NCBI GenBank assembly: GCA_000993405.1
Contig: LBWB01000009.1
Coordinates: 13,848-77,847 of the forward strand
DNA from: Candidatus Woesebacteria bacterium GW2011_GWB1_39_12
GTDB lineage: Bacteria; Patescibacteriota; Microgenomatia; UBA8517
Direction: 5' to 3'
DNA: 64,000 nucleotides
Every line of letters starts with the position of its first letter. The stretch's first letter is position 1. The translations under genes were made by a program, and so were the position numbers. Positions 10,164 to 38,919 of the stretch are shown one piece after another. The notes below the pieces were generated by a model, which was not told the origin of the DNA, ran no database searches, and was given only the letters and a program-made list of their open reading frames with translations.

Positions 10164-10197
10164 CACCGTGCGCTGATTAGGTTCTAACTTGGGGTAA

Positions 10198-11376
10198 TTA
10201 TTCGCTGAATTCGGAAAGAGTTGCGGAAAGTTGAAGTGTTTCACCATCGCGCCAGACTTCTAGCGTTATTGATTGACCGGCTTTTTTCTTGGAAATTAAA
10301 TCAGCCAGTCCGCCGTCGTCCCCTTTTACTTCTTCGCCGTCGAATTTAGTAATGATATCGTTTGGCTTAATCCCTGCACTTGCGGCAGGAGAATTTTCAA
10401 CCACCTCAACAACATAAGCTCCCTGCGGAACTTTATTTAAAATTGCAGTCTCCTGATCGACCATTTGGTACTGAACACCCAAGAAAGGCTTGGAGGCAAA
10501 CGATCCCGATTTTTTAAACTGATCCAGCGCATCTCTGACCAAATTAATAGGAATTGCAAATCCGATGTTTTCTGCTCCTTGAGCAACGGCAACATTAACC
10601 CCAATTACCTGTCCCGCACTATTTAGAAGCGGCCCACCCGAATTTCCGGGGTTTATGGCCGCGTCTGTTTGGATAACGTCATCTAGTCTTTCGACAAATC
10701 CCTCAAAAGCGCTACCCGCAGTAATTCCCCGACCAAGTCCCGAGATAACTCCGGTCGTAACCGTATGCCTGAATTCTCCCAAAGCAGTTCCAATGGCAAT
10801 CACAAACTGACCAACTTTGAGGTTACCCGACTCACCCAGTTCAACCGGTTGAAGCGCTTGCCCTGAGCCCGCCGAAGGGTCTATCTTTAGTACGGCTAAA
10901 TCATTCGAAGGATCGCGACTGACTTTTTGAACCTCATACTCTTTGCCGTCTTTGGTTATCACCTTATATTTAGAATCCGTATCCGAAACTACATGTTTAT
11001 TCGTTATGATAAGTCCGTCTTCGGAAACGACAAAACCGGACCCTATATCCTGAGGTTGTCCTCCCTCGATGCGAGATCTAAATCCCCCGCCAAAAGGATT
11101 AAACTCCAAAATTCTTCTCTGGGGCGTCTGGATAGAAACGGTTACCACGGATGGGGAAACGCGATCTGCAACATTTATGACAACCGATTCTTCGCTCAAG
11201 ACTTTCTGTTCAATTGTCCCGGTTCTAAAACCGCCTGAGCTATCTCTTGCAACTAAAAGGTCTAATGGCTTAATCACAAAAAATCTGTCAGCTAAAGCAC
11301 CGCCCAAGGCAGATACCAGGACAACAAACCCGACCACAAGACCTATCACTAAACCTTGAAATTTTGATCTATTCAT
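10198..11376 (-). CDS. htrA: Trypsin-like serine protease HtrA/DegP family with C-terminal PDZ domain
   Basis: N-terminal TM anchor; catalytic triad context (ITNKHVV, DLAVLKI, GNSGGPLLN); PDZ domain at C-terminus. Confidence 0.9.
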   Translation of the reverse strand: MNRSKFQGLVIGLVVGFVVLVSALGGALADRFFVIKPLDLLVARDSSGGFRTGTIEQKVLSEESVVINVADRVSPSVVTVSIQTPQRRILEFNPFGGGFRSRIEGGQPQDIGSGFVVSEDGLIITNKHVVSDTDSKYKVITKDGKEYEVQKVSRDPSNDLAVLKIDPSAGSGQALQPVELGESGNLKVGQFVIAIGTALGEFRHTVTTGVISGLGRGITAGSAFEGFVERLDDVIQTDAAINPGNSGGPLLNSAGQVIGVNVAVAQGAENIGFAIPINLVRDALDQFKKSGSFASKPFLGVQYQMVDQETAILNKVPQGAYVVEVVENSPAASAGIKPNDIITKFDGEEVKGDDGGLADLISKKKAGQSITLEVWRDGETLQLSATLSEFSE

Positions 11377-30679: not shown

Positions 30680-31171
30680 TTATCTTGCAACCGAGATGCT
30701 TTCACCACCTTCTGCTGAACAGGAAGCTACTGTGACAATTCCATTATTTACTCTTAATGTATATTCAGTGTGATCTGTTGTAACTCCTCCCGGATCAGAC
30801 GGTAAAGACGCAAGATATGCCTGATTGGTAACCAATTCTGTTTCAAGGTCAGCACAGTTACCTGTTGCAGCTACTCCACACCCTGCAACAGCATTACACC
30901 CTGTGGTAATTCCTGTATTAACGATCTCGCGCACTGTTCCATCATTAGTCAGTCCACAAGTTGCATAAGTGCCACCATTATCAACCAAACACTCATGTAC
31001 TGCGGTCAAATATTGATTTACATCGTTCCAGCGTCTGGCATTTCTAGTGTCCGCTAGTCTGGTTGCCGGATTAAGAGCGGCAAAGACCACCACCAATAAA
31101 ATTGAAAGAATAGCAACGACTAAAAGAATTTCTATTAAAGTAAAACCTCTTTTTATTTTGGGCAGAATCAT
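30680..31171 (-). CDS. pilA: Type IV pilin (major pilin PilA-like)
   Basis: Prepilin leader MILPKIKRG|FTLIEILLVVAIL; Cys-rich C-terminal region. Confidence 0.8.
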   Translation of the reverse strand: MILPKIKRGFTLIEILLVVAILSILLVVVFAALNPATRLADTRNARRWNDVNQYLTAVHECLVDNGGTYATCGLTNDGTVREIVNTGITTGCNAVAGCGVAATGNCADLETELVTNQAYLASLPSDPGGVTTDHTEYTLRVNNGIVTVASCSAEGGESISVAR

Positions 31172-31226
31172 TCTTTTCACCCCCAATCTGAACACTTCTA
31201 GTATAGACATAAATGAGAGCCTTATG

Positions 31227-32306
31227 TCAATCCCGTTTCTTCCCAACTATCACCACAACGTCATATTCTGAGTCTTCTGCTAAAGTTTCATCTGATTTAA
31301 CGACTTCATAATCAACAAGAGCCTCTTTTATCAACACAAGTACTTGATCATTTATACCCTCTTTCATTTTCACTTGTGTCTCAACATAATCACTTTTATC
31401 AGCATTGCCTGTATCAACCGTGCTAAAACCAATCGGATCGAGAAGCACTTTCACACTGCCCGCTTCTCCCACCACACCCGAACCGTTTTGAACTTGAACT
31501 TTATAGCCGGATACATCTACTTCCTCTTCCGGAGTGGGTTCGACTGTCGGCATCGGTGCCAAGGTTGGTGTCAACGTAACCTGCGGCGTTTCAACACTCT
31601 CTTCCGGCTTTTTGAAAAGAAACATTTTAGCCAAAACTATAAGTCCTATAACGAATAAAATAAGTAAAATTAATGTCGTAAAACTCATTCTGAAAGTAAG
31701 AACTCCTTTTTTTTCCGACTTAGTCTCTTCCTCCTTAGAAACTTCTTGAGTTTCACCTTCGGTTTCGGTCTCGGTAGCCTTCTTCCCATCTTTTAGGGTT
31801 ATGTTTAAAACTTCTTCATCACGCCCTGCAATATCTTCTTTCATTGCAAGGCCGATAATGGGATTGGCGTCGCGCGTTTTGGCCACAACCTCCGGCTCAA
31901 TTGCTTCAACCATAAGTCCTACATTTTCAATGGACGAGGATAAGGTTTTGTAAAAATCGCCAACAAGAGCAAAGACTAAAGCCGATCCTACGCCAACTTC
32001 TTTATAATCCCATTCACCGGCCTCCAAAGACTCCGGAATTTTTTCTTTCAACTGATCGGTAATATAATCCCTCTTGGCTTCGTGAGAAAGATTTTCATCA
32101 ACATCTAACCTGACTGCATACGAAAACTCGTCGGCAACCAAAATCCTAAATTTCTTGGTTTTAAATCTTTTGACAATTTCTGCAAAAGCCAAATCCAGAG
32201 TTTCCGACGTCCAGCCAAATTCGTAAGATTGAAGAATCTTTTCCTTTGCGCCCGGATTAATTTCGGCGGTAATAATTTTATCTTTGGCAATCGCAATTAT
32301 TATCAT
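31227..32306 (-). CDS. PilM/PilN-like pilus assembly protein with C-terminal LytR_C-like domain
   Basis: N-terminal degenerate PilM-like segment, central TM helix, Pro/Thr/Glu linker, C-terminal YKVQVQNGSGVVGEAGSVKVLLDPIGFSTVDTGNADKSDYVETQV (LytR_C pattern). Confidence 0.5.
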   Translation of the reverse strand: MIIIAIAKDKIITAEINPGAKEKILQSYEFGWTSETLDLAFAEIVKRFKTKKFRILVADEFSYAVRLDVDENLSHEAKRDYITDQLKEKIPESLEAGEWDYKEVGVGSALVFALVGDFYKTLSSSIENVGLMVEAIEPEVVAKTRDANPIIGLAMKEDIAGRDEEVLNITLKDGKKATETETEGETQEVSKEEETKSEKKGVLTFRMSFTTLILLILFVIGLIVLAKMFLFKKPEESVETPQVTLTPTLAPMPTVEPTPEEEVDVSGYKVQVQNGSGVVGEAGSVKVLLDPIGFSTVDTGNADKSDYVETQVKMKEGINDQVLVLIKEALVDYEVVKSDETLAEDSEYDVVVIVGKKRD

Positions 32307-32768: not shown

Positions 32769-33290
32769 TCACTGTGATCGTAATTCAACCGATGTTTCAT
32801 AAGTTTCACTTTTCTGAAACTCCTGTCTGTCACCTGTTGCTTCAATAGTTATCGAAAACCTGACGTTGGTTGAGCCGGCAGTAGAAAAGTCGGTAAAATT
32901 TAAGGCTGTAACAGTTACTTTGTTGCTTGTCAAAAAATACTGGTTACCCCCATATCCGATCCTCAGGCGTCCGCTCGAAACATCTCTATCTATAACAGTT
33001 GGATTTCGACCAGCATCGGTTGACGCCAAAGAAATTGATGATGCCGAGACAGAATTAACTCCCGAAGCATTTCTGATCTCATACATTATTATTTTTACGG
33101 CGAGTCTCATGTTTTGGTTAACTTCCTGATGCACCTGCGATCTGACTCTTCCGTAAACTATATCCGAAGTAAAATAAATTACTCCGGTCATAAACATCGT
33201 CACAATGGCGATATATAAAATAAGCTCAACCAAAGTAAAGCCTCTTGAGAATTTGGAATTTGGAACTTGGAATTTGGAATTATTCATCAT
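32769..33290 (-). CDS. Prepilin-type minor pilin (start ATG overlaps the upstream stop as ATGA)
   Basis: Leader MMNNSKFQVPNSKFSRG|FTLVELILYIAIV; ORF track extends to a TTG at 33302. Confidence 0.75.
   Translation of the reverse strand: MMNNSKFQVPNSKFSRGFTLVELILYIAIVTMFMTGVIYFTSDIVYGRVRSQVHQEVNQNMRLAVKIIMYEIRNASGVNSVSASSISLASTDAGRNPTVIDRDVSSGRLRIGYGGNQYFLTSNKVTVTALNFTDFSTAGSTNVRFSITIEATGDRQEFQKSETYETSVELRSQ
33248..33280. repeat. Heptanucleotide tandem repeat (GAATTTG)x4.7 inside the prepilin leader coding region
   Basis: gaatttg gaatttg gaacttg gaatttg gaatt; period 7 is not a multiple of 3. Confidence 0.8.
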
Positions 33291-35125
33291 GGATTTCTCC
33301 AATAACCAAAATAAAATGGACTGGTAGTGCTTTGGACTAGATTAGCTTCCAAAGTCGTTCCATCTGCATACGTCGGATTGGTCCAAGTAAATACACCGGC
33401 GCTGTCCATTTCGAGCCGTTTGGCAAATAAATCATTCACAGAGTTAGATACAAGAAACATCAATTTATCTTTATTTTTTGGATCTGTCTGGATGTCGTAC
33501 CATCTCGGAGTTCCAAACAACGGAGTTGGCGTAAACCAAGGAGTACTATCAGTTCCCTGCCTGACAAAGGTGCTGCCATTCCATACAAATCCATGAATTC
33601 TTTGTGATTGAGTACTACTATTATCAAAAACCACAATTCCACGGGTAGTAGCACCATTAATCAACCATCCGGTTGCTACAAAACTTGCACCAGCTACAGG
33701 AGTCAGGGCAGAAGTATCAAGATCATTTGTTCCCGTCCAAGCCGAACCAGACCAGCGTGCGGCTTGCAAATCGCTTCCTCCATCGCCAATTGATGCAAAT
33801 AGAATTTCGTCAGAGTTTGGATTTGATGAGATATCAAGTGACGTTGCATCATTTGCCATACTTGTAATTGCCGTTCTACTTGCATTCCACGTACATGAAG
33901 GGGGGGATCCACCGTCGCACTTGTTATACCACGCACCATTTGCCGTACCAGATCCTCCAGATCCCCAAACGACCATCAAATGCCCAGATAATGACTCAAA
34001 ATCAATATCGAAACTATCTCCATTTGGAATAGTGGGAGAAGAAGTACAATTTCCTCTACATTCAAGTGTAGTCTCCAGAGCAGACGTCCTTTGAGTCCAA
34101 GAAGAACCGCTCCAAATAGCTGCTTGCAGATCTCTATTCATATCAGCCCAGGCTGCAGCTATGACATCTGAACTAGCTCGGCTGTCTGCTGATAACTTTA
34201 CCCACGTCACCACTCCGTTTGTTCCCGGAGAGTCAAAAGCCGTCTGATCTACCCAATTGGCGCTCCCGCACCCTAAAGAACCAGATTTAGTTTGATAGTC
34301 AAGCTCGCCAGTACCAGCATCTGTAGAATAAAGCACTATCGCATCCCCCGACTGATATTCATAGGCTATATCAAATCTTCTGGTAGTACCGGTTCCCCCG
34401 ACTGTCACACTCCACTCATTCGTCCAGGTTGTTCCGTCAAAGCATAAAATCCGTAAAGTGCTAGAATCAACATAAGCAGCGATTGCTTCCTGTTTTGTCG
34501 GCGAAGTCTTGATAACAAAGTTTCTTCCAGGTGCACCAGCCACCGTATCGCTGTTTGCACTAAATGTATTACTGGCATTGCTATAAACGTTAAATCGCGG
34601 AATGGAACTTCCTGTTCGACCATACACCAAAAGTGCGTCTCCGGCTGAAGAAATTGCTTTTCTGAAATTAGTTAAATATGTCGCAAGAGTAATACTTCTT
34701 GCTCGGACGTCGGAAAAATCCCAGTCAACTGTGGCGTCAATTTTTTTAGCGTCAGGGTCAGGAGTCCCACCTGAGGCCACAATATTTCCGCCCACATCTC
34801 TTTGCACGTCAGAAATTACAATAGTTCTTAAAAACTTTCCAACATTATCTGGTCCTGCATCAAAACTCCAGACGTTTCCGGTCGTGTCTAAACCATATGT
34901 ACCCGCGGTTAAATTCCCCCACGACTGATTTTTAATCGACCTAACTCCTTCGATTCCCTCTTGGGCAATAAGTGTAGCCTGTGTTTCTTCCTCGGCTTGT
35001 CTATTAACCGAAAAGCTGTGTATTACAGTCGCAACTCCTGTCGCCGCTATGATTATAAACATAAAAACGGCGAGTATCACTTCGACTACTGAAAACCCTT
35101 TTTTAACAGTTTTTCTTTTAAACAT
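33287..35125 (-). CDS. Large pilin-like protein (prepilin N-terminus; putative pilus tip/adhesin), GC-rich
   Basis: MFKRKTVKKG|FSVVEVILAVFMFIIIAA; 612 aa Gly/Thr/Ser/Trp-rich; local GC ~55-58% versus ~40% surroundings. Confidence 0.65.
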   Translation of the reverse strand: MFKRKTVKKGFSVVEVILAVFMFIIIAATGVATVIHSFSVNRQAEEETQATLIAQEGIEGVRSIKNQSWGNLTAGTYGLDTTGNVWSFDAGPDNVGKFLRTIVISDVQRDVGGNIVASGGTPDPDAKKIDATVDWDFSDVRARSITLATYLTNFRKAISSAGDALLVYGRTGSSIPRFNVYSNASNTFSANSDTVAGAPGRNFVIKTSPTKQEAIAAYVDSSTLRILCFDGTTWTNEWSVTVGGTGTTRRFDIAYEYQSGDAIVLYSTDAGTGELDYQTKSGSLGCGSANWVDQTAFDSPGTNGVVTWVKLSADSRASSDVIAAAWADMNRDLQAAIWSGSSWTQRTSALETTLECRGNCTSSPTIPNGDSFDIDFESLSGHLMVVWGSGGSGTANGAWYNKCDGGSPPSCTWNASRTAITSMANDATSLDISSNPNSDEILFASIGDGGSDLQAARWSGSAWTGTNDLDTSALTPVAGASFVATGWLINGATTRGIVVFDNSSTQSQRIHGFVWNGSTFVRQGTDSTPWFTPTPLFGTPRWYDIQTDPKNKDKLMFLVSNSVNDLFAKRLEMDSAGVFTWTNPTYADGTTLEANLVQSTTSPFYFGYWRNP

Positions 35126-35134
35126 AGTCCACGA

Positions 35135-36028
35135 TTAATTTATATCCAATCCCCCTGCTGCATTTAAACCAACTGTAGTAGATCCCAAATCGTTACTTAT
35201 GGTGATATTTAAAACACTTGAAGGCTCTCCCCTCTGACCCGAAGTACCCGAAAAAGTTGTCTCGCTTAGTCCCGATACACTGACACCAGTCAAGTCGTAA
35301 TCTTCACTGTAAGTAGGACTTGCACACGAACCGCTGAATAAACGTAAATTAGCCCCGCTCATGCAAACTCCCCAAGTAGTGTTGCCTTTACCATCCATTG
35401 CATAGCTTTGGGCCTTACGAATTGCGCTTATTACTTTATCGCTTCCTACCTCCAAATTGTTTGTAATAAGAAGCCGCGTTAAAGAAGGGCCGGCTGAAGC
35501 AGCTAGAATGGCAACTATCGCGATTACCAAAAGAAGCTCGATTAGGGTAAAAGCCGCTGATAAACTCCGATGAGAACGCAGATTAACGCTTTTATTTATT
35601 AGTGTTTTTCTCTGTTCTCGAGAATACTTACTTCTTACAGTGTCATATACTCTACGAATAATATCCAATTTTTCCTCTCCAAAGTTAATCAAGAAGCCCA
35701 ACTTGTAAGGAGTACCTCTCAGATAGTTCCAAAATTGTTTCTTATCTGATGCTGTTATAAAGGGTTTAGATTTCAGCTCAATTATTATCCTTTCATTTAC
35801 GACAAAATCGGGGGTATATATTCCAACCGTGACATTCTTATATGCAACTGTGATTCTTTTCTGGGTTTCAACTTGTAACTTACGATCCTCTAATTCTTTT
35901 TTCAAAGCTCGTTCTACTATCTTTTCTTTATGAACACCAGCAAAGGCTTTCCATACTTCAAAACATGCTCCTCTTATAGAATATGATTCTTGTTCATATA
36001 AAAAATTATCGACTCTTTTTTTTGGCAT
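35135..36028 (-). CDS. Fusion protein: N-terminal GxxExxY (PD-(D/E)XK-like) domain + C-terminal prepilin-type pilin
   Basis: Residues 1-~140 match the GxxExxY family (LYEQESYSIRGACFEVWKAFAGVHKEKIVERAL...GFLINFGEEKLDIIRRV); residues ~155-297 are a pilin (SAAFTLIELLLVIAIVAILAA...). Confidence 0.55.
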   Translation of the reverse strand: MPKKRVDNFLYEQESYSIRGACFEVWKAFAGVHKEKIVERALKKELEDRKLQVETQKRITVAYKNVTVGIYTPDFVVNERIIIELKSKPFITASDKKQFWNYLRGTPYKLGFLINFGEEKLDIIRRVYDTVRSKYSREQRKTLINKSVNLRSHRSLSAAFTLIELLLVIAIVAILAASAGPSLTRLLITNNLEVGSDKVISAIRKAQSYAMDGKGNTTWGVCMSGANLRLFSGSCASPTYSEDYDLTGVSVSGLSETTFSGTSGQRGEPSSVLNITISNDLGSTTVGLNAAGGLDIN

Positions 36029-36099
36029 ATGGACATTTTCAGCGTTTCTCGGCGTTATTTATCTGCATTCAGCGTACTCATCAGCATTGATCAGCGTTA

Positions 36100-37173
36100 T
36101 TATCTGCGAATTGACCCAGTCAATTGGTAGATCGGTGAGATTATCGACAAAGCCACAAACCCCACAACTAACCCTATCACAATAAGGAGAGCCGGCTCTA
36201 AAATAGTGGATAGATTGCGACTTATGTCATCGACTTCGTCTTCAAAAAAATCTCCCAAATATAAGAGCGTTTCGTCGAGTTTTCCTGTTTTTTCACCAAC
36301 AGAAATCATTCTTCCTACAAGTGGTGGAAATTCTGAGTAACCTTTACGCATTGACTCCCCGATGTTTTTTCCCTTTGTTAAAGACTTTGAAAGAGTTAAA
36401 ACGTCACCTCTAAAACGCAGGTTTGAAAGAGTATTTGCCGTTACTTCAAGACTTTTTGTTATCGGAACTCCGCTTGTTATAAGGGTTCCAAGATTTCGGG
36501 TAAAACGTGCGAGTTGGCCGTATGCAATAAGTTTTCCCATTACCGGAGTTTTCAGTAGGGCGGCATGCCAGAGCGGTTTAACTTTAGGAAGCTGTGATAC
36601 TATTCGAAAGAGTACAACAAAAATGACGATTCCTACAGCAATTAGCGACCCATAATTTTTCATCATCTCCGCAAAAAAGATCAGAATTCTTGTGGTTAAA
36701 GGAAGTTCAATATCAAACGACTTAAAAAAATCAACAAGTTGTGGAAGTATATAAAACGAAATAAAACTTCCCATTATTACTGTTGCGAAAAGTACTATTG
36801 CCGGATAAGTCATCGCGCCTTGAACTTTCTTTCGGAGTGAATAGTCTTTACCAAGTTGTTTTGCCAAAAAATCAAGGTTCTCCCCCAAAGTACCCGAACT
36901 CTCCCCGACTTCAATAAGACTTACGTAAAACTGGTCAAACACTTTAGGGTGTTTTCTAAAAGAATCAGCCAAGTTTTTACCGTTTTTGACGTCTTCCAAA
37001 ACTTGAGCGAGAACTTTCCTGAAGTATGCATTTTTACTCTGATCAACCAAAGTCTCCAAGGCCTCGGTAATTGATATTCCGGCCTTCATCATTGTAGCCA
37101 GATGCTTGGTAAATAAAAGCCGCTCCTGAATGCCCACTCTTTTCAAAAATGTAACTTGGGTAGTAAATATCAT
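36100..37173 (-). CDS. pilC: Type IV pilus assembly platform protein PilC (GspF family)
   Basis: T2SSF domain repeats, 3 TM helices. Confidence 0.85.
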   Translation of the reverse strand: MIFTTQVTFLKRVGIQERLLFTKHLATMMKAGISITEALETLVDQSKNAYFRKVLAQVLEDVKNGKNLADSFRKHPKVFDQFYVSLIEVGESSGTLGENLDFLAKQLGKDYSLRKKVQGAMTYPAIVLFATVIMGSFISFYILPQLVDFFKSFDIELPLTTRILIFFAEMMKNYGSLIAVGIVIFVVLFRIVSQLPKVKPLWHAALLKTPVMGKLIAYGQLARFTRNLGTLITSGVPITKSLEVTANTLSNLRFRGDVLTLSKSLTKGKNIGESMRKGYSEFPPLVGRMISVGEKTGKLDETLLYLGDFFEDEVDDISRNLSTILEPALLIVIGLVVGFVALSIISPIYQLTGSIRR

Positions 37174-37242: not shown

Positions 37243-38919
37243 TTATTCTTTCGTCACCCTAATTATCTCATCAATGGTTGTTATGCCTTGTTTTACCTTT
37301 CCGATGCCATCCTCCAACATGGTTGTCATTCCATTTTTAACTGCAATTTTTTTAATTTCAGATGACTCTTTTTTGGCAACAATTGCAGTCTTCATTTCGT
37401 CGTCGACTAAAAGTACCTCAAAAATTCCCACGCGACCAACGTAGCCTGTCCCGTGGCACAAATCACAACCCTTACCCTTATATACTCTCAGATTTTTTTC
37501 ATTTGGAAAATACTTTTGCATAATACTTTCCGAAATTTCGTTAATTAAAATGCCGCTAACTTCTTCTGAAACGCGACACTTAAGGCAAATTTTTCTTACC
37601 AAACGCTGGGCAATTACCACATTAACGGTCGTTGCAATAAGAAAAGGTTCAACCCCAAAATCAAGAAGTCTCGGGAAGGCTGTTGCAGCGTCGTTCGTGT
37701 GCAGGGTCGATAAAACCAAGTGTCCTGTCATAGCGGCGTTTATAGAAATGTCTGCGGTTTCTTCGTCACGAATCTCCCCGACCAGAATTATATCGGGGTC
37801 TTGCCTAACTATGGACTTCAAGCCTGCCGCAAAAGTTAAGTTCGTATTCGGATTTACCTGAATTTGATTAACCCCTTCCATGTCGTATTCAACAGGATCT
37901 TCTATTGTCATTATATTCACATTCCTTTTGTTCAAGAGTTTCAAAACCGCATAAAGGGTCGTGGTTTTACCGCTTCCGGTGGGCCCTGTTGACAAAATCA
38001 TCCCGTGAGGCTTGTTGTAAGCGCTTACGACCTTTTTCAGATCGCTTTCGGAAAAACCAAGATCCTGAAGTGAAAATTGGCGACTTCTCTCGGATAAAAG
38101 CCGCATGACAACTTTTTCACCGTTAGTCACTGGAACAATGGAGATCCTGATATCCAAGTTTTCCTCGGCGAGCTCGACACTTATCTTCCCGTCCTGGGCT
38201 GATTGATGTTCGTCTGTTCTTAAGCGGGCCATAACTTTTACCCTGGTCACTATCTGCGGATGTATCACGGAAGGCAAATTTATAATGTCGTGAAGCATTC
38301 CGTCTATTCTGAAACGTACGGTCGAACCGTCATCCGTTGGCTCAATATGAATATCAGATGAGCGGTTTTGGTAAGCATAGGTGATAATTGTATCTACGAT
38401 TTTAATAATTGAAGGTTCGGCAACCTTGGTACCCTTAGCCTCTTTGACACTTTCCGCAATAATTTCATCAAAGACTTTTGCAATATCTTTTGCATAAAGA
38501 TTGAGGGCATCCTTTATACTTCTTTTGGATGCATAATAGGTTTTTACCGGAATCCCGATCTTCTTGCCTATAAAATCCGGCACTTGTTTGTCAGATGGGT
38601 CATTTAAAACAATGTGCAGTCCTTCCTTATCTCTCTTAAATGCAACGACCATCTGCTTTTTTGCATAAACCTCCGGAATTGTATTTAATACACCCTCATC
38701 TATTGCCGTTTCGGAAAGATTAACAAAAGGATAATTAATAAGATCCGCAATAATCTTGCCGATATTAGTGTCTGAAATTAAATCCTTTTGGACAAGTAAT
38801 TCTTCTAAAGAGATTTTTTTAAGACTCGCTTCCTCAAAGGATTCCTTTAATTTGTCCAAGGGAATGACGTCCAATTCTTTTAAAGTATCAAAAAGTTCCT
38901 GCTCGCTAAAAAGCCTCAT
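37243..38919 (-). CDS. pilB: Type IV pilus assembly ATPase PilB (GspE family)
   Basis: Walker A GPTGSGKTTT, Asp/His boxes, C-terminal CxxC...CxxC zinc site. Confidence 0.9.
   Translation of the reverse strand: MRLFSEQELFDTLKELDVIPLDKLKESFEEASLKKISLEELLVQKDLISDTNIGKIIADLINYPFVNLSETAIDEGVLNTIPEVYAKKQMVVAFKRDKEGLHIVLNDPSDKQVPDFIGKKIGIPVKTYYASKRSIKDALNLYAKDIAKVFDEIIAESVKEAKGTKVAEPSIIKIVDTIITYAYQNRSSDIHIEPTDDGSTVRFRIDGMLHDIINLPSVIHPQIVTRVKVMARLRTDEHQSAQDGKISVELAEENLDIRISIVPVTNGEKVVMRLLSERSRQFSLQDLGFSESDLKKVVSAYNKPHGMILSTGPTGSGKTTTLYAVLKLLNKRNVNIMTIEDPVEYDMEGVNQIQVNPNTNLTFAAGLKSIVRQDPDIILVGEIRDEETADISINAAMTGHLVLSTLHTNDAATAFPRLLDFGVEPFLIATTVNVVIAQRLVRKICLKCRVSEEVSGILINEISESIMQKYFPNEKNLRVYKGKGCDLCHGTGYVGRVGIFEVLLVDDEMKTAIVAKKESSEIKKIAVKNGMTTMLEDGIGKVKQGITTIDEIIRVTKE

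Follow-up and report, generated by a model that had tools for sequence, protein, structure and literature searches.

How can a type IV pilin be made from a gene that has neither a start codon nor a leader of its own, and what is a nuclease gene doing in their place? The question is raised by an open reading frame (ORF) of 297 amino acids (aa) in Candidatus Woesebacteria bacterium GW2011_GWB1_39_12, a groundwater bacterium of the Candidate Phyla Radiation (CPR). The ORF starts with ATG and occupies 35135..36028 on the minus strand of the stretch analysed here, 64,000 nucleotides (nt) of contig LBWB01000009.1 (hereafter the window). Its N-terminal half is a nuclease domain of the GxxExxY family, its C-terminal half a prepilin-type pilin, and hexamer arms in inverted orientation make a palindromic element of the nuclease gene. 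The reading that we favor, with fair confidence in the whole, is that a selfish element replaced the pilin leader, that the pilin now depends on the ATG of the element, and that prepilin peptidase releases both parts of the product. Insertion and capture of the start codon are very probable; the cleavage is the least certain step, lying somewhere between an even chance and a slight lean in its favor.

A single reading frame encodes a nuclease domain and a pilin

The features of the ORF that bear on the question are the following.

35654..35992, minus strand: GxxExxY / PDDEXK_3 nuclease domain, residues 13-125 (PF13366, TIGR04256)
35924-35926, 35807-35809, 35777-35779 and 35771-35773, minus strand: codons of the putative catalytic residues E35, D74, E84 and K86, respectively
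35552..35653, minus strand: linker, residues 126-159 (RVYDTVRSKYSREQRKTLINKSVNLRSHRSLSAA), basic and predicted to be disordered
35549..35554, minus strand: predicted prepilin peptidase site A159|F160, from the sequence
35492..35560, minus strand: class III signal / N-methylation motif, residues 157-179 (PF07963, TIGR02532)
35138..35551, minus strand: predicted mature pilin of 138 aa, residues 160-297 (AlphaFold2, Foldseek, identity to orthologues)

A preliminary description of the locus, made from the letters alone, had proposed that one 297-aa ORF combines a full GxxExxY domain with a prepilin-type pilin. Profile searches bore this out, with all four relevant models above their cut-offs. PF13366 (PDDEXK_3) matched residues 13-125 over profile positions 2-115 of 117 (E 1e-27, 97 bits, cut-off 22), and the NCBIfam model TIGR04256 (GxxExxY) matched the N-terminal half over positions 2-115 of 116 (E 4e-28, 98 bits, cut-off 35). 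At residues 157-179, PF07963 (N_methyl) scored 25.3 bits against a cut-off of 21.2 and TIGR02532 24.0 bits against 16.3. The PD-(D/E)XK signature (E ... PD ... ExK) is present as E35, P73-D74 and E84-L-K86; E35, D74, E84 and K86 are the putative catalytic residues, and together with K34 and P73 they are invariant in the alignment of non-deleted fused domains. The eponymous GxxExxY motif (residues 32-38) reads VHKEKIV here, the Glu being retained and the Gly and Tyr substituted; another fusion protein, P0010, has GHKEVVY at the same position. The sequence GFLINFG (residues 111-117), put forward in the preliminary description as the hallmark of the domain, is indeed a conserved C-terminal motif of the family, but not the motif from which the family takes its name. 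Judged by these sequence features, the N-terminal half appears to be a bona fide member of the GxxExxY family in all respects except that it does not stand alone. The function of PF13366/GxxExxY is listed as unknown (PMC3424549). Sequence searches found no solved structure of the nuclease domain, and Pfam scans of the fusion and of the helicase and glycosyltransferase inserts described below found no Hint/intein family.

The junction reads ...NLRSHRSLSAA|FTLIELLLVIAIVAIL. As had been noticed at the outset (SLSAA|FTLIE), the residue at position -1 of the predicted cleavage site is Ala159 and not Gly. Glu164 is at +5, and the sequence downstream, FTLIELLLVIAIVAILAASAG, is hydrophobic. The leader up to this site is 159 aa long and includes the folded nuclease domain. 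Its last 34 residues, the linker, contain nine Lys or Arg against two Asp or Glu. From codon 122 to F160 there is no in-frame ATG, GTG or TTG, and the linker is open in the pilin frame alone, the two other frames having 3 and 5 stops.

Structure prediction of both halves had been suggested as a check. AlphaFold2, run with a 45-sequence alignment, gave two confident domains (mean predicted local distance difference test score, pLDDT, 88.8) joined by a linker of low confidence (pLDDT ~47-53 over residues ~131-159) that is predicted to be disordered. In the pilin half, a 50-residue alpha-1 helix (residues 162-212) is followed by a beta-sheet body. Compared with the PDB by Foldseek, this half matched EpsH of V. 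cholerae (2qv8/4dq9) with probability 1.0 and a target-normalised TM-score of 0.55-0.63; in the predicted model it thus resembles minor pilins of the GspH/EpsH type. Matches of the N-terminal half were weak, all of them to nucleases of the PD-(D/E)XK fold: Cas4 SSO0001, MGME1 and Hjc (E 6e-3 to 0.1).

The identical 297-aa ORF was found on at least 24 contigs of Candidatus Woesebacteria from many independent samples and assemblers, invariably in the gene order PilB-PilC-fusion-612-aa pilin. The exact protein is deposited as KKQ98561.1 / KKR00744.1 (UniRef100_A0A0G0QA16) from the metagenome-assembled genomes (MAGs) GW2011_GWB1_39_12 and GWA1_39_12, and its database labels are "hypothetical" or "GxxExxY protein" only.

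The nuclease gene is bounded by inverted hexamer arms

The fusion is the third gene of a minus-strand pilus operon, after the genes for PilB and PilC. To either side of the nuclease gene lie two arms of short repeats.

36100..37173, minus strand: PilC platform protein (PF00482 T2SSF, E 2e-59), whose stop codon, TAA at 36100-36102, directly precedes the 5' arm
36029..36108, minus strand: 5' arm of the GxxExxY element, tandem hexamers of CGCNGA type
36103-36108 (CGCAGA), 36091-36096 (CGCTGA), 36081-36086 (TGCTGA) and 36069-36074 (CGCTGA), minus strand: first hexamers of the 5' arm
36062-36067 (TGCAGA), 36049-36054 (CGCCGA) and 36039-36044 (CGCTGA), minus strand: remaining hexamers of the 5' arm
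36026..36028, minus strand: ATG of the element, the sole usable start for the 297-aa ORF and hence for the pilin
35555-35591, minus strand: 3' arm, translated as the last part of the linker, with hexamers AAGCGT, TCTGCG, TCATCG and TCAGCG

The arms fill all the space from the pilC stop codon to the +1 codon of the pilin. The 5' arm is untranslated except for its first hexamer, which falls within the last codons of pilC. Exact copies of CGCNGA start at 36103, 36091, 36069, 36049 and 36039, with degenerate copies between them, and the end of the linker, in the 3' arm, carries the inverted complement, TCNGCG. A 28-nt stretch of the 5' arm is 79% complementary to 35555-35582. When the two arms were folded together, the pairing energy was -45.7 kcal/mol (z = -4.3) and none of 200 dinucleotide shuffles did as well; for the window and five other pilin-fusion loci the z values ranged from -4.0 to -5.6, again with 0 of 200 shuffles as good. 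A long stem closes off the nuclease ORF in both the minimum-free-energy and the centroid structures. The significance is confined to the pairing between the arms: the energy of the fold of the entire element is not unusual (z = -0.3).

The same arms were present at every GxxExxY copy for which DNA could be read. Besides the window, the survey covered five pilin fusions (L001, L004, L009, L011 and L013), two stand-alone copies (L134 and L135) and one insert in a RecG gene (L137). At the loci other than the window, each arm has 2-6 exact hexamers, spaced mostly by 10 and 12 nt in an order that is mirror-imaged between the arms. The variant of the hexamer co-varies between the arms, as CGCTGA/TCAGCG, CGCGGA/TCCGCG or CGCAGA/TCTGCG. 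In stand-alone copies the ORF stops inside or just past the 3' arm, typically with a C-terminus of the form "...SA*". In the fused copies the 3' arm reads on into "SA(G/A)|FTLIE" and is open in the pilin frame only. The arm passes directly into the pilin, the junction being TCAGCG-GCT|TTT in the window and TCGGCG-GGA|CTC, TCCGCG-GGA|GTA or TCCGCG-GGT|TTC elsewhere.

The window carries one copy of the element; no further copies of the element or of its arms were found in its 64 kb. The arms of this copy are more degenerate than those at the other loci, with only two exact hexamers in the 3' arm and gaps of 20-22 nt left by the decay of hexamers in between, which suggests that the copy is old and no longer mobile and that its 3' arm is now evolving as a coding linker. 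No target-site duplication was seen at the junctions. Two CGCTGA hexamers also occur at 10171 and 10203, 32 nt apart (10171-10208, plus strand), in the intergenic space between convergent ORFs; with no GxxExxY ORF nearby, they are probably there by chance.

Related operons contain empty, occupied and decayed sites

Comparison with orthologous operons had been proposed as a way of finding out whether a stop separates the two parts in related genomes. Syntenic operons of the arrangement PilB-PilC-pilin-large pilin-pilin were compared. Two of them, L005 and L006, have the orthologous pilin with an ordinary leader of 27-30 aa and without GxxExxY. In L001, a complete in-frame fusion is present, which is also 297 aa long. 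In L004 the fused protein (P0002) has suffered an internal deletion of 73 residues, and with them E35, D74, E84 and K86 are gone. This copy nevertheless retains its ATG, its conserved ends and the linker encoded by the arm, and it is still in frame. Two genes separated by a stop were seen in no related locus: the pilin occurs alone, in the same fusion, or behind a deleted remnant. The mature pilin encoded in the window shares 54-59% identity with its unfused syntenic orthologues. Between the window and L001, the pilin halves are 33% identical and the nuclease halves ~65%. The patchy distribution speaks for gain or loss on several occasions and against a single ancient event, and patchiness and the incongruent similarity of nucleases and pilins together argue for mobility. 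Of the two alternatives in the preliminary description, a genuine chimera or a GxxExxY gene inserted into, or fused with, the leader of a pilin, the second thus finds strong support in the hexamer arms, in the arm-filled gap and in the unfused genes of L005 and L006. A scan of genome contigs with the whole protein gave only one distant relative of the pilin, in Candidatus Roizmanbacteria.

A further orthologous pilin, P0005 (L138:499-1056), lacks GxxExxY and has a repeat-rich leader of 49 aa; it lies on a short contig where only PilC is visible upstream. This leader begins at the pilC stop codon and consists of GAAGT-type repeats followed by CTTCGAAC repeats. The idea that it might be a pair of arms without an ORF was rejected, the hairpin not being significant (z = +1.6); it may reflect an insertion of repeats of a different sort at the leader position.

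Fusions recur across families of pilins

Searches of protein sets of 5.8 billion and 1.84 billion sequences showed that at least 15 canonical GxxExxY-pilin fusions exist: the window protein, P0001-4, P0008-10, P0013-16, P0018, P0023 and P0056. Their globular pilin parts fall into about 8 groups, with a mutual identity of ~20-35%. The contexts vary as well: the fusion of L013 directly follows a gene for an A24 prepilin peptidase, and that of L009 has one three genes upstream. Similarity among the nucleases does not follow similarity among the pilins. The nuclease of P0009 shares 74-78% identity with its counterparts in P0004, P0008 and P0018, where the pilins are unrelated, and just 54-56% with its counterparts in P0010 and P0056, where the pilin is of the same family. 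This incongruence between the two halves suggests that the fusions were acquired independently. Position +5 is Glu in all 15 fusions, and position -1 is Gly in 12 of the 15 and Ala in the other three (the window protein, P0004 and P0018), a pattern which suggests that the signals for processing have been retained.

The usual form of the family is another. As the preliminary description had held, GxxExxY is ordinarily a stand-alone gene: the best 120 of 4211 homologues in a domain-profile search are all single-domain proteins of 127-169 aa, and the stand-alone form outnumbers the fusions by orders of magnitude. Two other searches listed no fusions. A DNA-level scan of metagenome contigs with the junction pattern TCNGCGGSNTTYACNYTNRTNGAR gave at least 120 loci; those listed were all ordinary pilins with an SAG|FTLIE leader, and a GxxExxY domain was absent from the 750 nt upstream of each. 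The one locus that was read was high in GC. A junction-profile search of the 5.8-billion-protein set listed no fusions, its candidate filter being swamped by stand-alone GxxExxY proteins.

Three further proteins join the domain to pilin-like anchors, which were recognised by eye, Pfam giving PDDEXK_3 alone: P0059, with a Flp/TadE-like G|QAVMEY, and P0057 and P0017, with PilX-like N-terminal transmembrane segments.

In-frame copies also lie in genes that do not encode pilins

A complete PDDEXK_3 domain was found inside two RecG helicases (P0031 and P0041), between the DEAD and Helicase_C domains and at the same site in both, between helicase motifs II and III. The hosts are 38-49% identical to each other and the inserts 67.5%. 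The insert of P0031 (L137:1001-3721) comprises 175 codons, has four hexamers per arm and lacks its own ATG; only the host frame is open, with 14 and 17 stops in the others. A complete PDDEXK_3 domain also occurs inside two GT4 glycosyltransferases (P0069 and P0073), with the arm-derived flanks "TQIDAD..." and "...NQRKSA", and after the riboflavin kinase domain of P0051. Among cluster representatives that matched through the nuclease part alone, 5 of 33 are embedded in larger host proteins, a rough figure, as long chimeras cluster separately. From the open frames we infer that the inserts would be translated with their host ORFs. Residence in frame in genes of CPR hosts is apparently a wider habit of this element family that has not been described before. 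Neither the recurrence on many families of pilins nor the in-frame insertions into other genes had been foreseen in the preliminary description.

How the pilin may be produced

The GxxExxY element occupies the leader-coding position of the first pilin gene after pilC, and the pilin behind it has lost both its start codon and its leader. This state is stable in the population and is met with on many pilins. The pilin would then be made only by translation from the ATG of the element, as a 297-aa preprotein. No Shine-Dalgarno sequence precedes this ATG, nor is one present upstream of most of the 16 longer window genes that were read. The nuclease domain and the linker would remain in the cytoplasm, residues 160-180 would span the membrane and the globular part would lie outside. 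By the positive-inside rule, so basic a linker is expected to be a cytoplasmic flank, and the cytoplasmic placement of the nuclease in the preliminary description agrees with it. The topology is a feasible one: single-pass proteins with sizeable cytoplasmic N-terminal domains exist, anti-sigma factors being an example. Prepilin peptidase, which acts at the cytoplasmic face, would cut between A159 and F160 and free a nuclease of ~18 kDa and a normal 138-aa pilin, so that the insertion would be of little cost to the host. Pilins may recur as hosts because their N-terminus is discarded anyway, so that it would be among the few positions able to accommodate an in-frame insertion at the front of a protein. 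A pilin deprived of its native start would depend on the element, and the element could decay without ever being lost; such dependence is illustrated by the in-frame remnant in L004.

Several observations weigh against this reading. The Ala at -1 in the window protein, P0004 and P0018 breaks the published cleavage motif, which has Gly at this position (PMC8578077). A search of the window for a gene for an A24 prepilin peptidase found none, whether the query was a motif or, in tblastn, two A24 peptidases encoded at related loci. We know of no peptidase that has been shown to accept a folded leader of ~160 aa. Strom and Lory in 1991 reportedly found Ala to be the one substitution at -1 that still permits some cleavage. 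The inserts in RecG and in the glycosyltransferases appear to persist where a leader peptidase could not possibly remove them, which would mean that removal is not a general requirement. Lastly, the fusions come from protein searches, which register in-frame cases only.

The explanation that competes best with the favored one, though we consider it unlikely, is that the protein is never cleaved. It would then be a bitopic chimera, with the nuclease tethered at the cytoplasmic face and the pilin-like domain outside, not assembled into a pilus; such a protein might be inert, or might interfere with pilus assembly or cap it. The Ala at -1 fits this explanation, the more so as the three other pilins of the window have short basic leaders with Gly at -1. 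So does the length of the leader, 5-15 times that of any documented one, known leaders measuring <10 aa (type IVa) or ~15-30 aa (type IVb) (PMC3927602); and the degenerate 3' arm of the window suggests an old, immobile copy. The prevalence of Gly at -1 among the fusions and the invariance of Glu at +5 are, on the other hand, hard to explain if processing is irrelevant, and a mature part as conserved as in the unfused orthologues suggests a working pilin.

It is improbable that the pilin gene is dead, its start and leader destroyed by the insertion and its open frame a coincidence that has not yet decayed. The lack of a start and leader of its own would agree with this, other pilins of the operon could compensate, and in a variant of the population (L141) the downstream gene for the 612-aa pilin is itself split. 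Yet 138 codons have stayed open, they encode a pilin fold predicted with high confidence and the product keeps its 54-59% identity to the unfused orthologues. The linker is open in the pilin frame alone, the in-frame state recurs in L001, despite a pilin identity of just 33%, and in the deleted remnant of L004, and the Glu at +5 has been kept throughout the independent fusions.

Two products might arise without any fusion protein, either from a non-canonical start in the 3' arm, such as CTG150, which would give the leader MRSHRSLSAA, or from cutting or splicing of the RNA after the manner of an intervening sequence (IVS). In-frame CTG150 and ATA144 do exist, and the arms are able to form a long stem enclosing the nuclease ORF. 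We regard this, too, as quite doubtful: rare starts are not conserved among the fusions (L001 has a single ATT near the junction), any internal start would be buried by the stem, and there would be no need for the 3' arm to stay so strictly open in the pilin frame. Excision of the element from the RNA at pilin loci was considered separately and rejected, for it would leave the pilin directly after the pilC stop, with no start.

An adaptive chimera, with the nuclease anchored at the base of the pilus and processing, for example, DNA taken up through the pilus by DNA-scavenging CPR bacteria, would account for the intact catalytic residues, for the recurrence in pilus operons and for persistence across deep divergence. 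This is highly improbable in view of the eight unrelated types of pilin involved, which include minor pilins of different positions, and of the copies in RecG, in glycosyltransferases and after a riboflavin kinase. Moreover, the remnant P0002 has lost the core of the nuclease and kept the frame, closer orthologues manage without the nuclease, and the stand-alone form is by far the commoner. A sequencing or assembly artefact, that is, a missing stop or a frameshift between two genes, can be dismissed, as the ORF recurs unchanged on the contigs and in the two deposited MAGs mentioned above, no start codon would be available to the pilin even with a stop restored, and analogous fusions occur in many other assemblies.

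Relation to known systems

In its pilin half the fusion is like the type IV prepilins and the GspH-EpsH-FimU minor (pseudo)pilins processed by PilD: it has the class III motif, the Glu at +5 and a helix followed by a beta-sheet body, its best fold match is EpsH, and it takes the usual place in the operon, after pilB and pilC and before further pilins. It differs from them in its 159-aa leader with a folded domain, in the Ala at -1 and in having no start of its own. With the stand-alone GxxExxY proteins it shares the full-length hidden Markov model match, the PD...ExK residues, the sequence GFLINFG...RRVYD and the hexamer arms; it differs in the absence of a stop after the 3' arm, in the degenerate VHKEKIV and in the partial decay of the arms.

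As an in-frame palindromic insert, the closest phenomenon described is that of the Rickettsia palindromic elements and in-frame miniature inverted-repeat transposable elements (PMC10969869). Like these, the GxxExxY element is palindromic, open in the frame of the host and found in unrelated host genes. The Rickettsia elements are ~150 bp long, encode no enzyme and are non-autonomous (PMC10969869), whereas the GxxExxY element includes a full nuclease gene of ~125 codons, has arms built of periodic hexamer arrays rather than a simple palindrome, and replaces the N-terminus of the pilin where the Rickettsia elements decorate a loop. Inteins and homing-endonuclease genes are alike in being selfish, nuclease-coding inserts in frame with a host protein and in occupying the same site in diverged hosts (here helicase motif II/III in RecG and the -1/+1 site in pilins); like an intein, a removable insert would be nearly free of cost. 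Neither a Hint domain nor splice-junction residues were found, and removal of the insert from pilins would be the work of a host peptidase, not of self-splicing. The repetitive extragenic palindromic (REP) sequences and their associated tyrosine transposases (RAYTs) offer another parallel, that of a small nuclease-type gene flanked by inverted copies of a short motif, with many copies dispersed over the genomes of a lineage. Their enzyme is of the HUH/IS200-like type, unlike the PD-(D/E)XK enzyme of GxxExxY, whose arms consist of hexamers in tandem, spaced by 10/12 nt. Translation into host proteins is not known for RAYT/REP units. ORFs of rRNA intervening sequences, finally, sit inside rRNA genes, whereas the element of the window sits in a pilus operon. 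A link of the GxxExxY family to such sequences, asserted in the preliminary description, was not confirmed: the window contains no rRNA, and a survey of rRNA insertions in the CPR lists LAGLIDADG, GIY-YIG and 23S_rRNA_IVP proteins and not PDDEXK_3 (PMC11270868).

No paper was found on GxxExxY-pilin fusions or on the architecture of the GxxExxY element. We put forward, tentatively and as a proposal that may well prove too broad, that GxxExxY genes and their periodic-hexamer arms constitute an undescribed class of autonomous mobile elements of the CPR and neighboring phyla that are "translated through", colonising coding genes in frame. Where the host protein is a pilin, they would commandeer the class III signal peptide and use the host prepilin peptidase as an excision enzyme, which would free a cytoplasmic nuclease and an intact pilin, an intein-like outcome reached through a host protease; the dependence of the pilin on their start codon would make them impossible to lose.

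If the favored reading is correct, the leader of the fusion would be by far the longest known in a prepilin and the only one that is a folded domain, and the locus would be a natural test of what prepilin peptidase tolerates, Ala at -1 included. It would also show clearly how a host gene can come to depend on a selfish insert, with the start codon captured and a decayed, in-frame remnant in a sister genome. The very large GxxExxY / PDDEXK_3 family, with thousands of members, is now given a defined element architecture, and the arms and the in-frame insertions make the mobility of the element and its choice of target directly testable. For annotation, the labels "GxxExxY protein" and "hypothetical" hide the pilin.

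Other features of the operon and the window

The remaining genes of the pilus operon are listed below.

37243..38919, minus strand: PilB assembly ATPase, first gene of the operon (PF00437 T2SSE, E 1e-130; PF05157 MshEN; named PilB by NCBI)
33287..35125, minus strand: 612-aa pilin-like protein with an ordinary leader, MFKRKTVKKG|FSVVEV, from the sequence
32769..33302, minus strand: pilin with an ordinary leader, ...SKFSRG|FTLVEL (PF07963)
31227-32306, minus strand: LytR_C-domain protein amid the pilin genes
30680..31246, minus strand: pilin with an ordinary leader, ...PKIKRG|FTLIEIL (PF07963)

Over its full length (1-64000) the window has a GC content of 38.9%, with no tRNA gene and no Rfam match. 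The 612-aa pilin-like protein has no Pfam match in the window; its orthologues in L004 and L005 have matches to PF08309 (LVIVD, beta-propeller). In the population variant L141 (2404-3894), the gene for this protein is broken into ORFs of 150 aa and 446 aa. The placement of a LytR_C protein between pilin genes is repeated, in the same layout, in L004.

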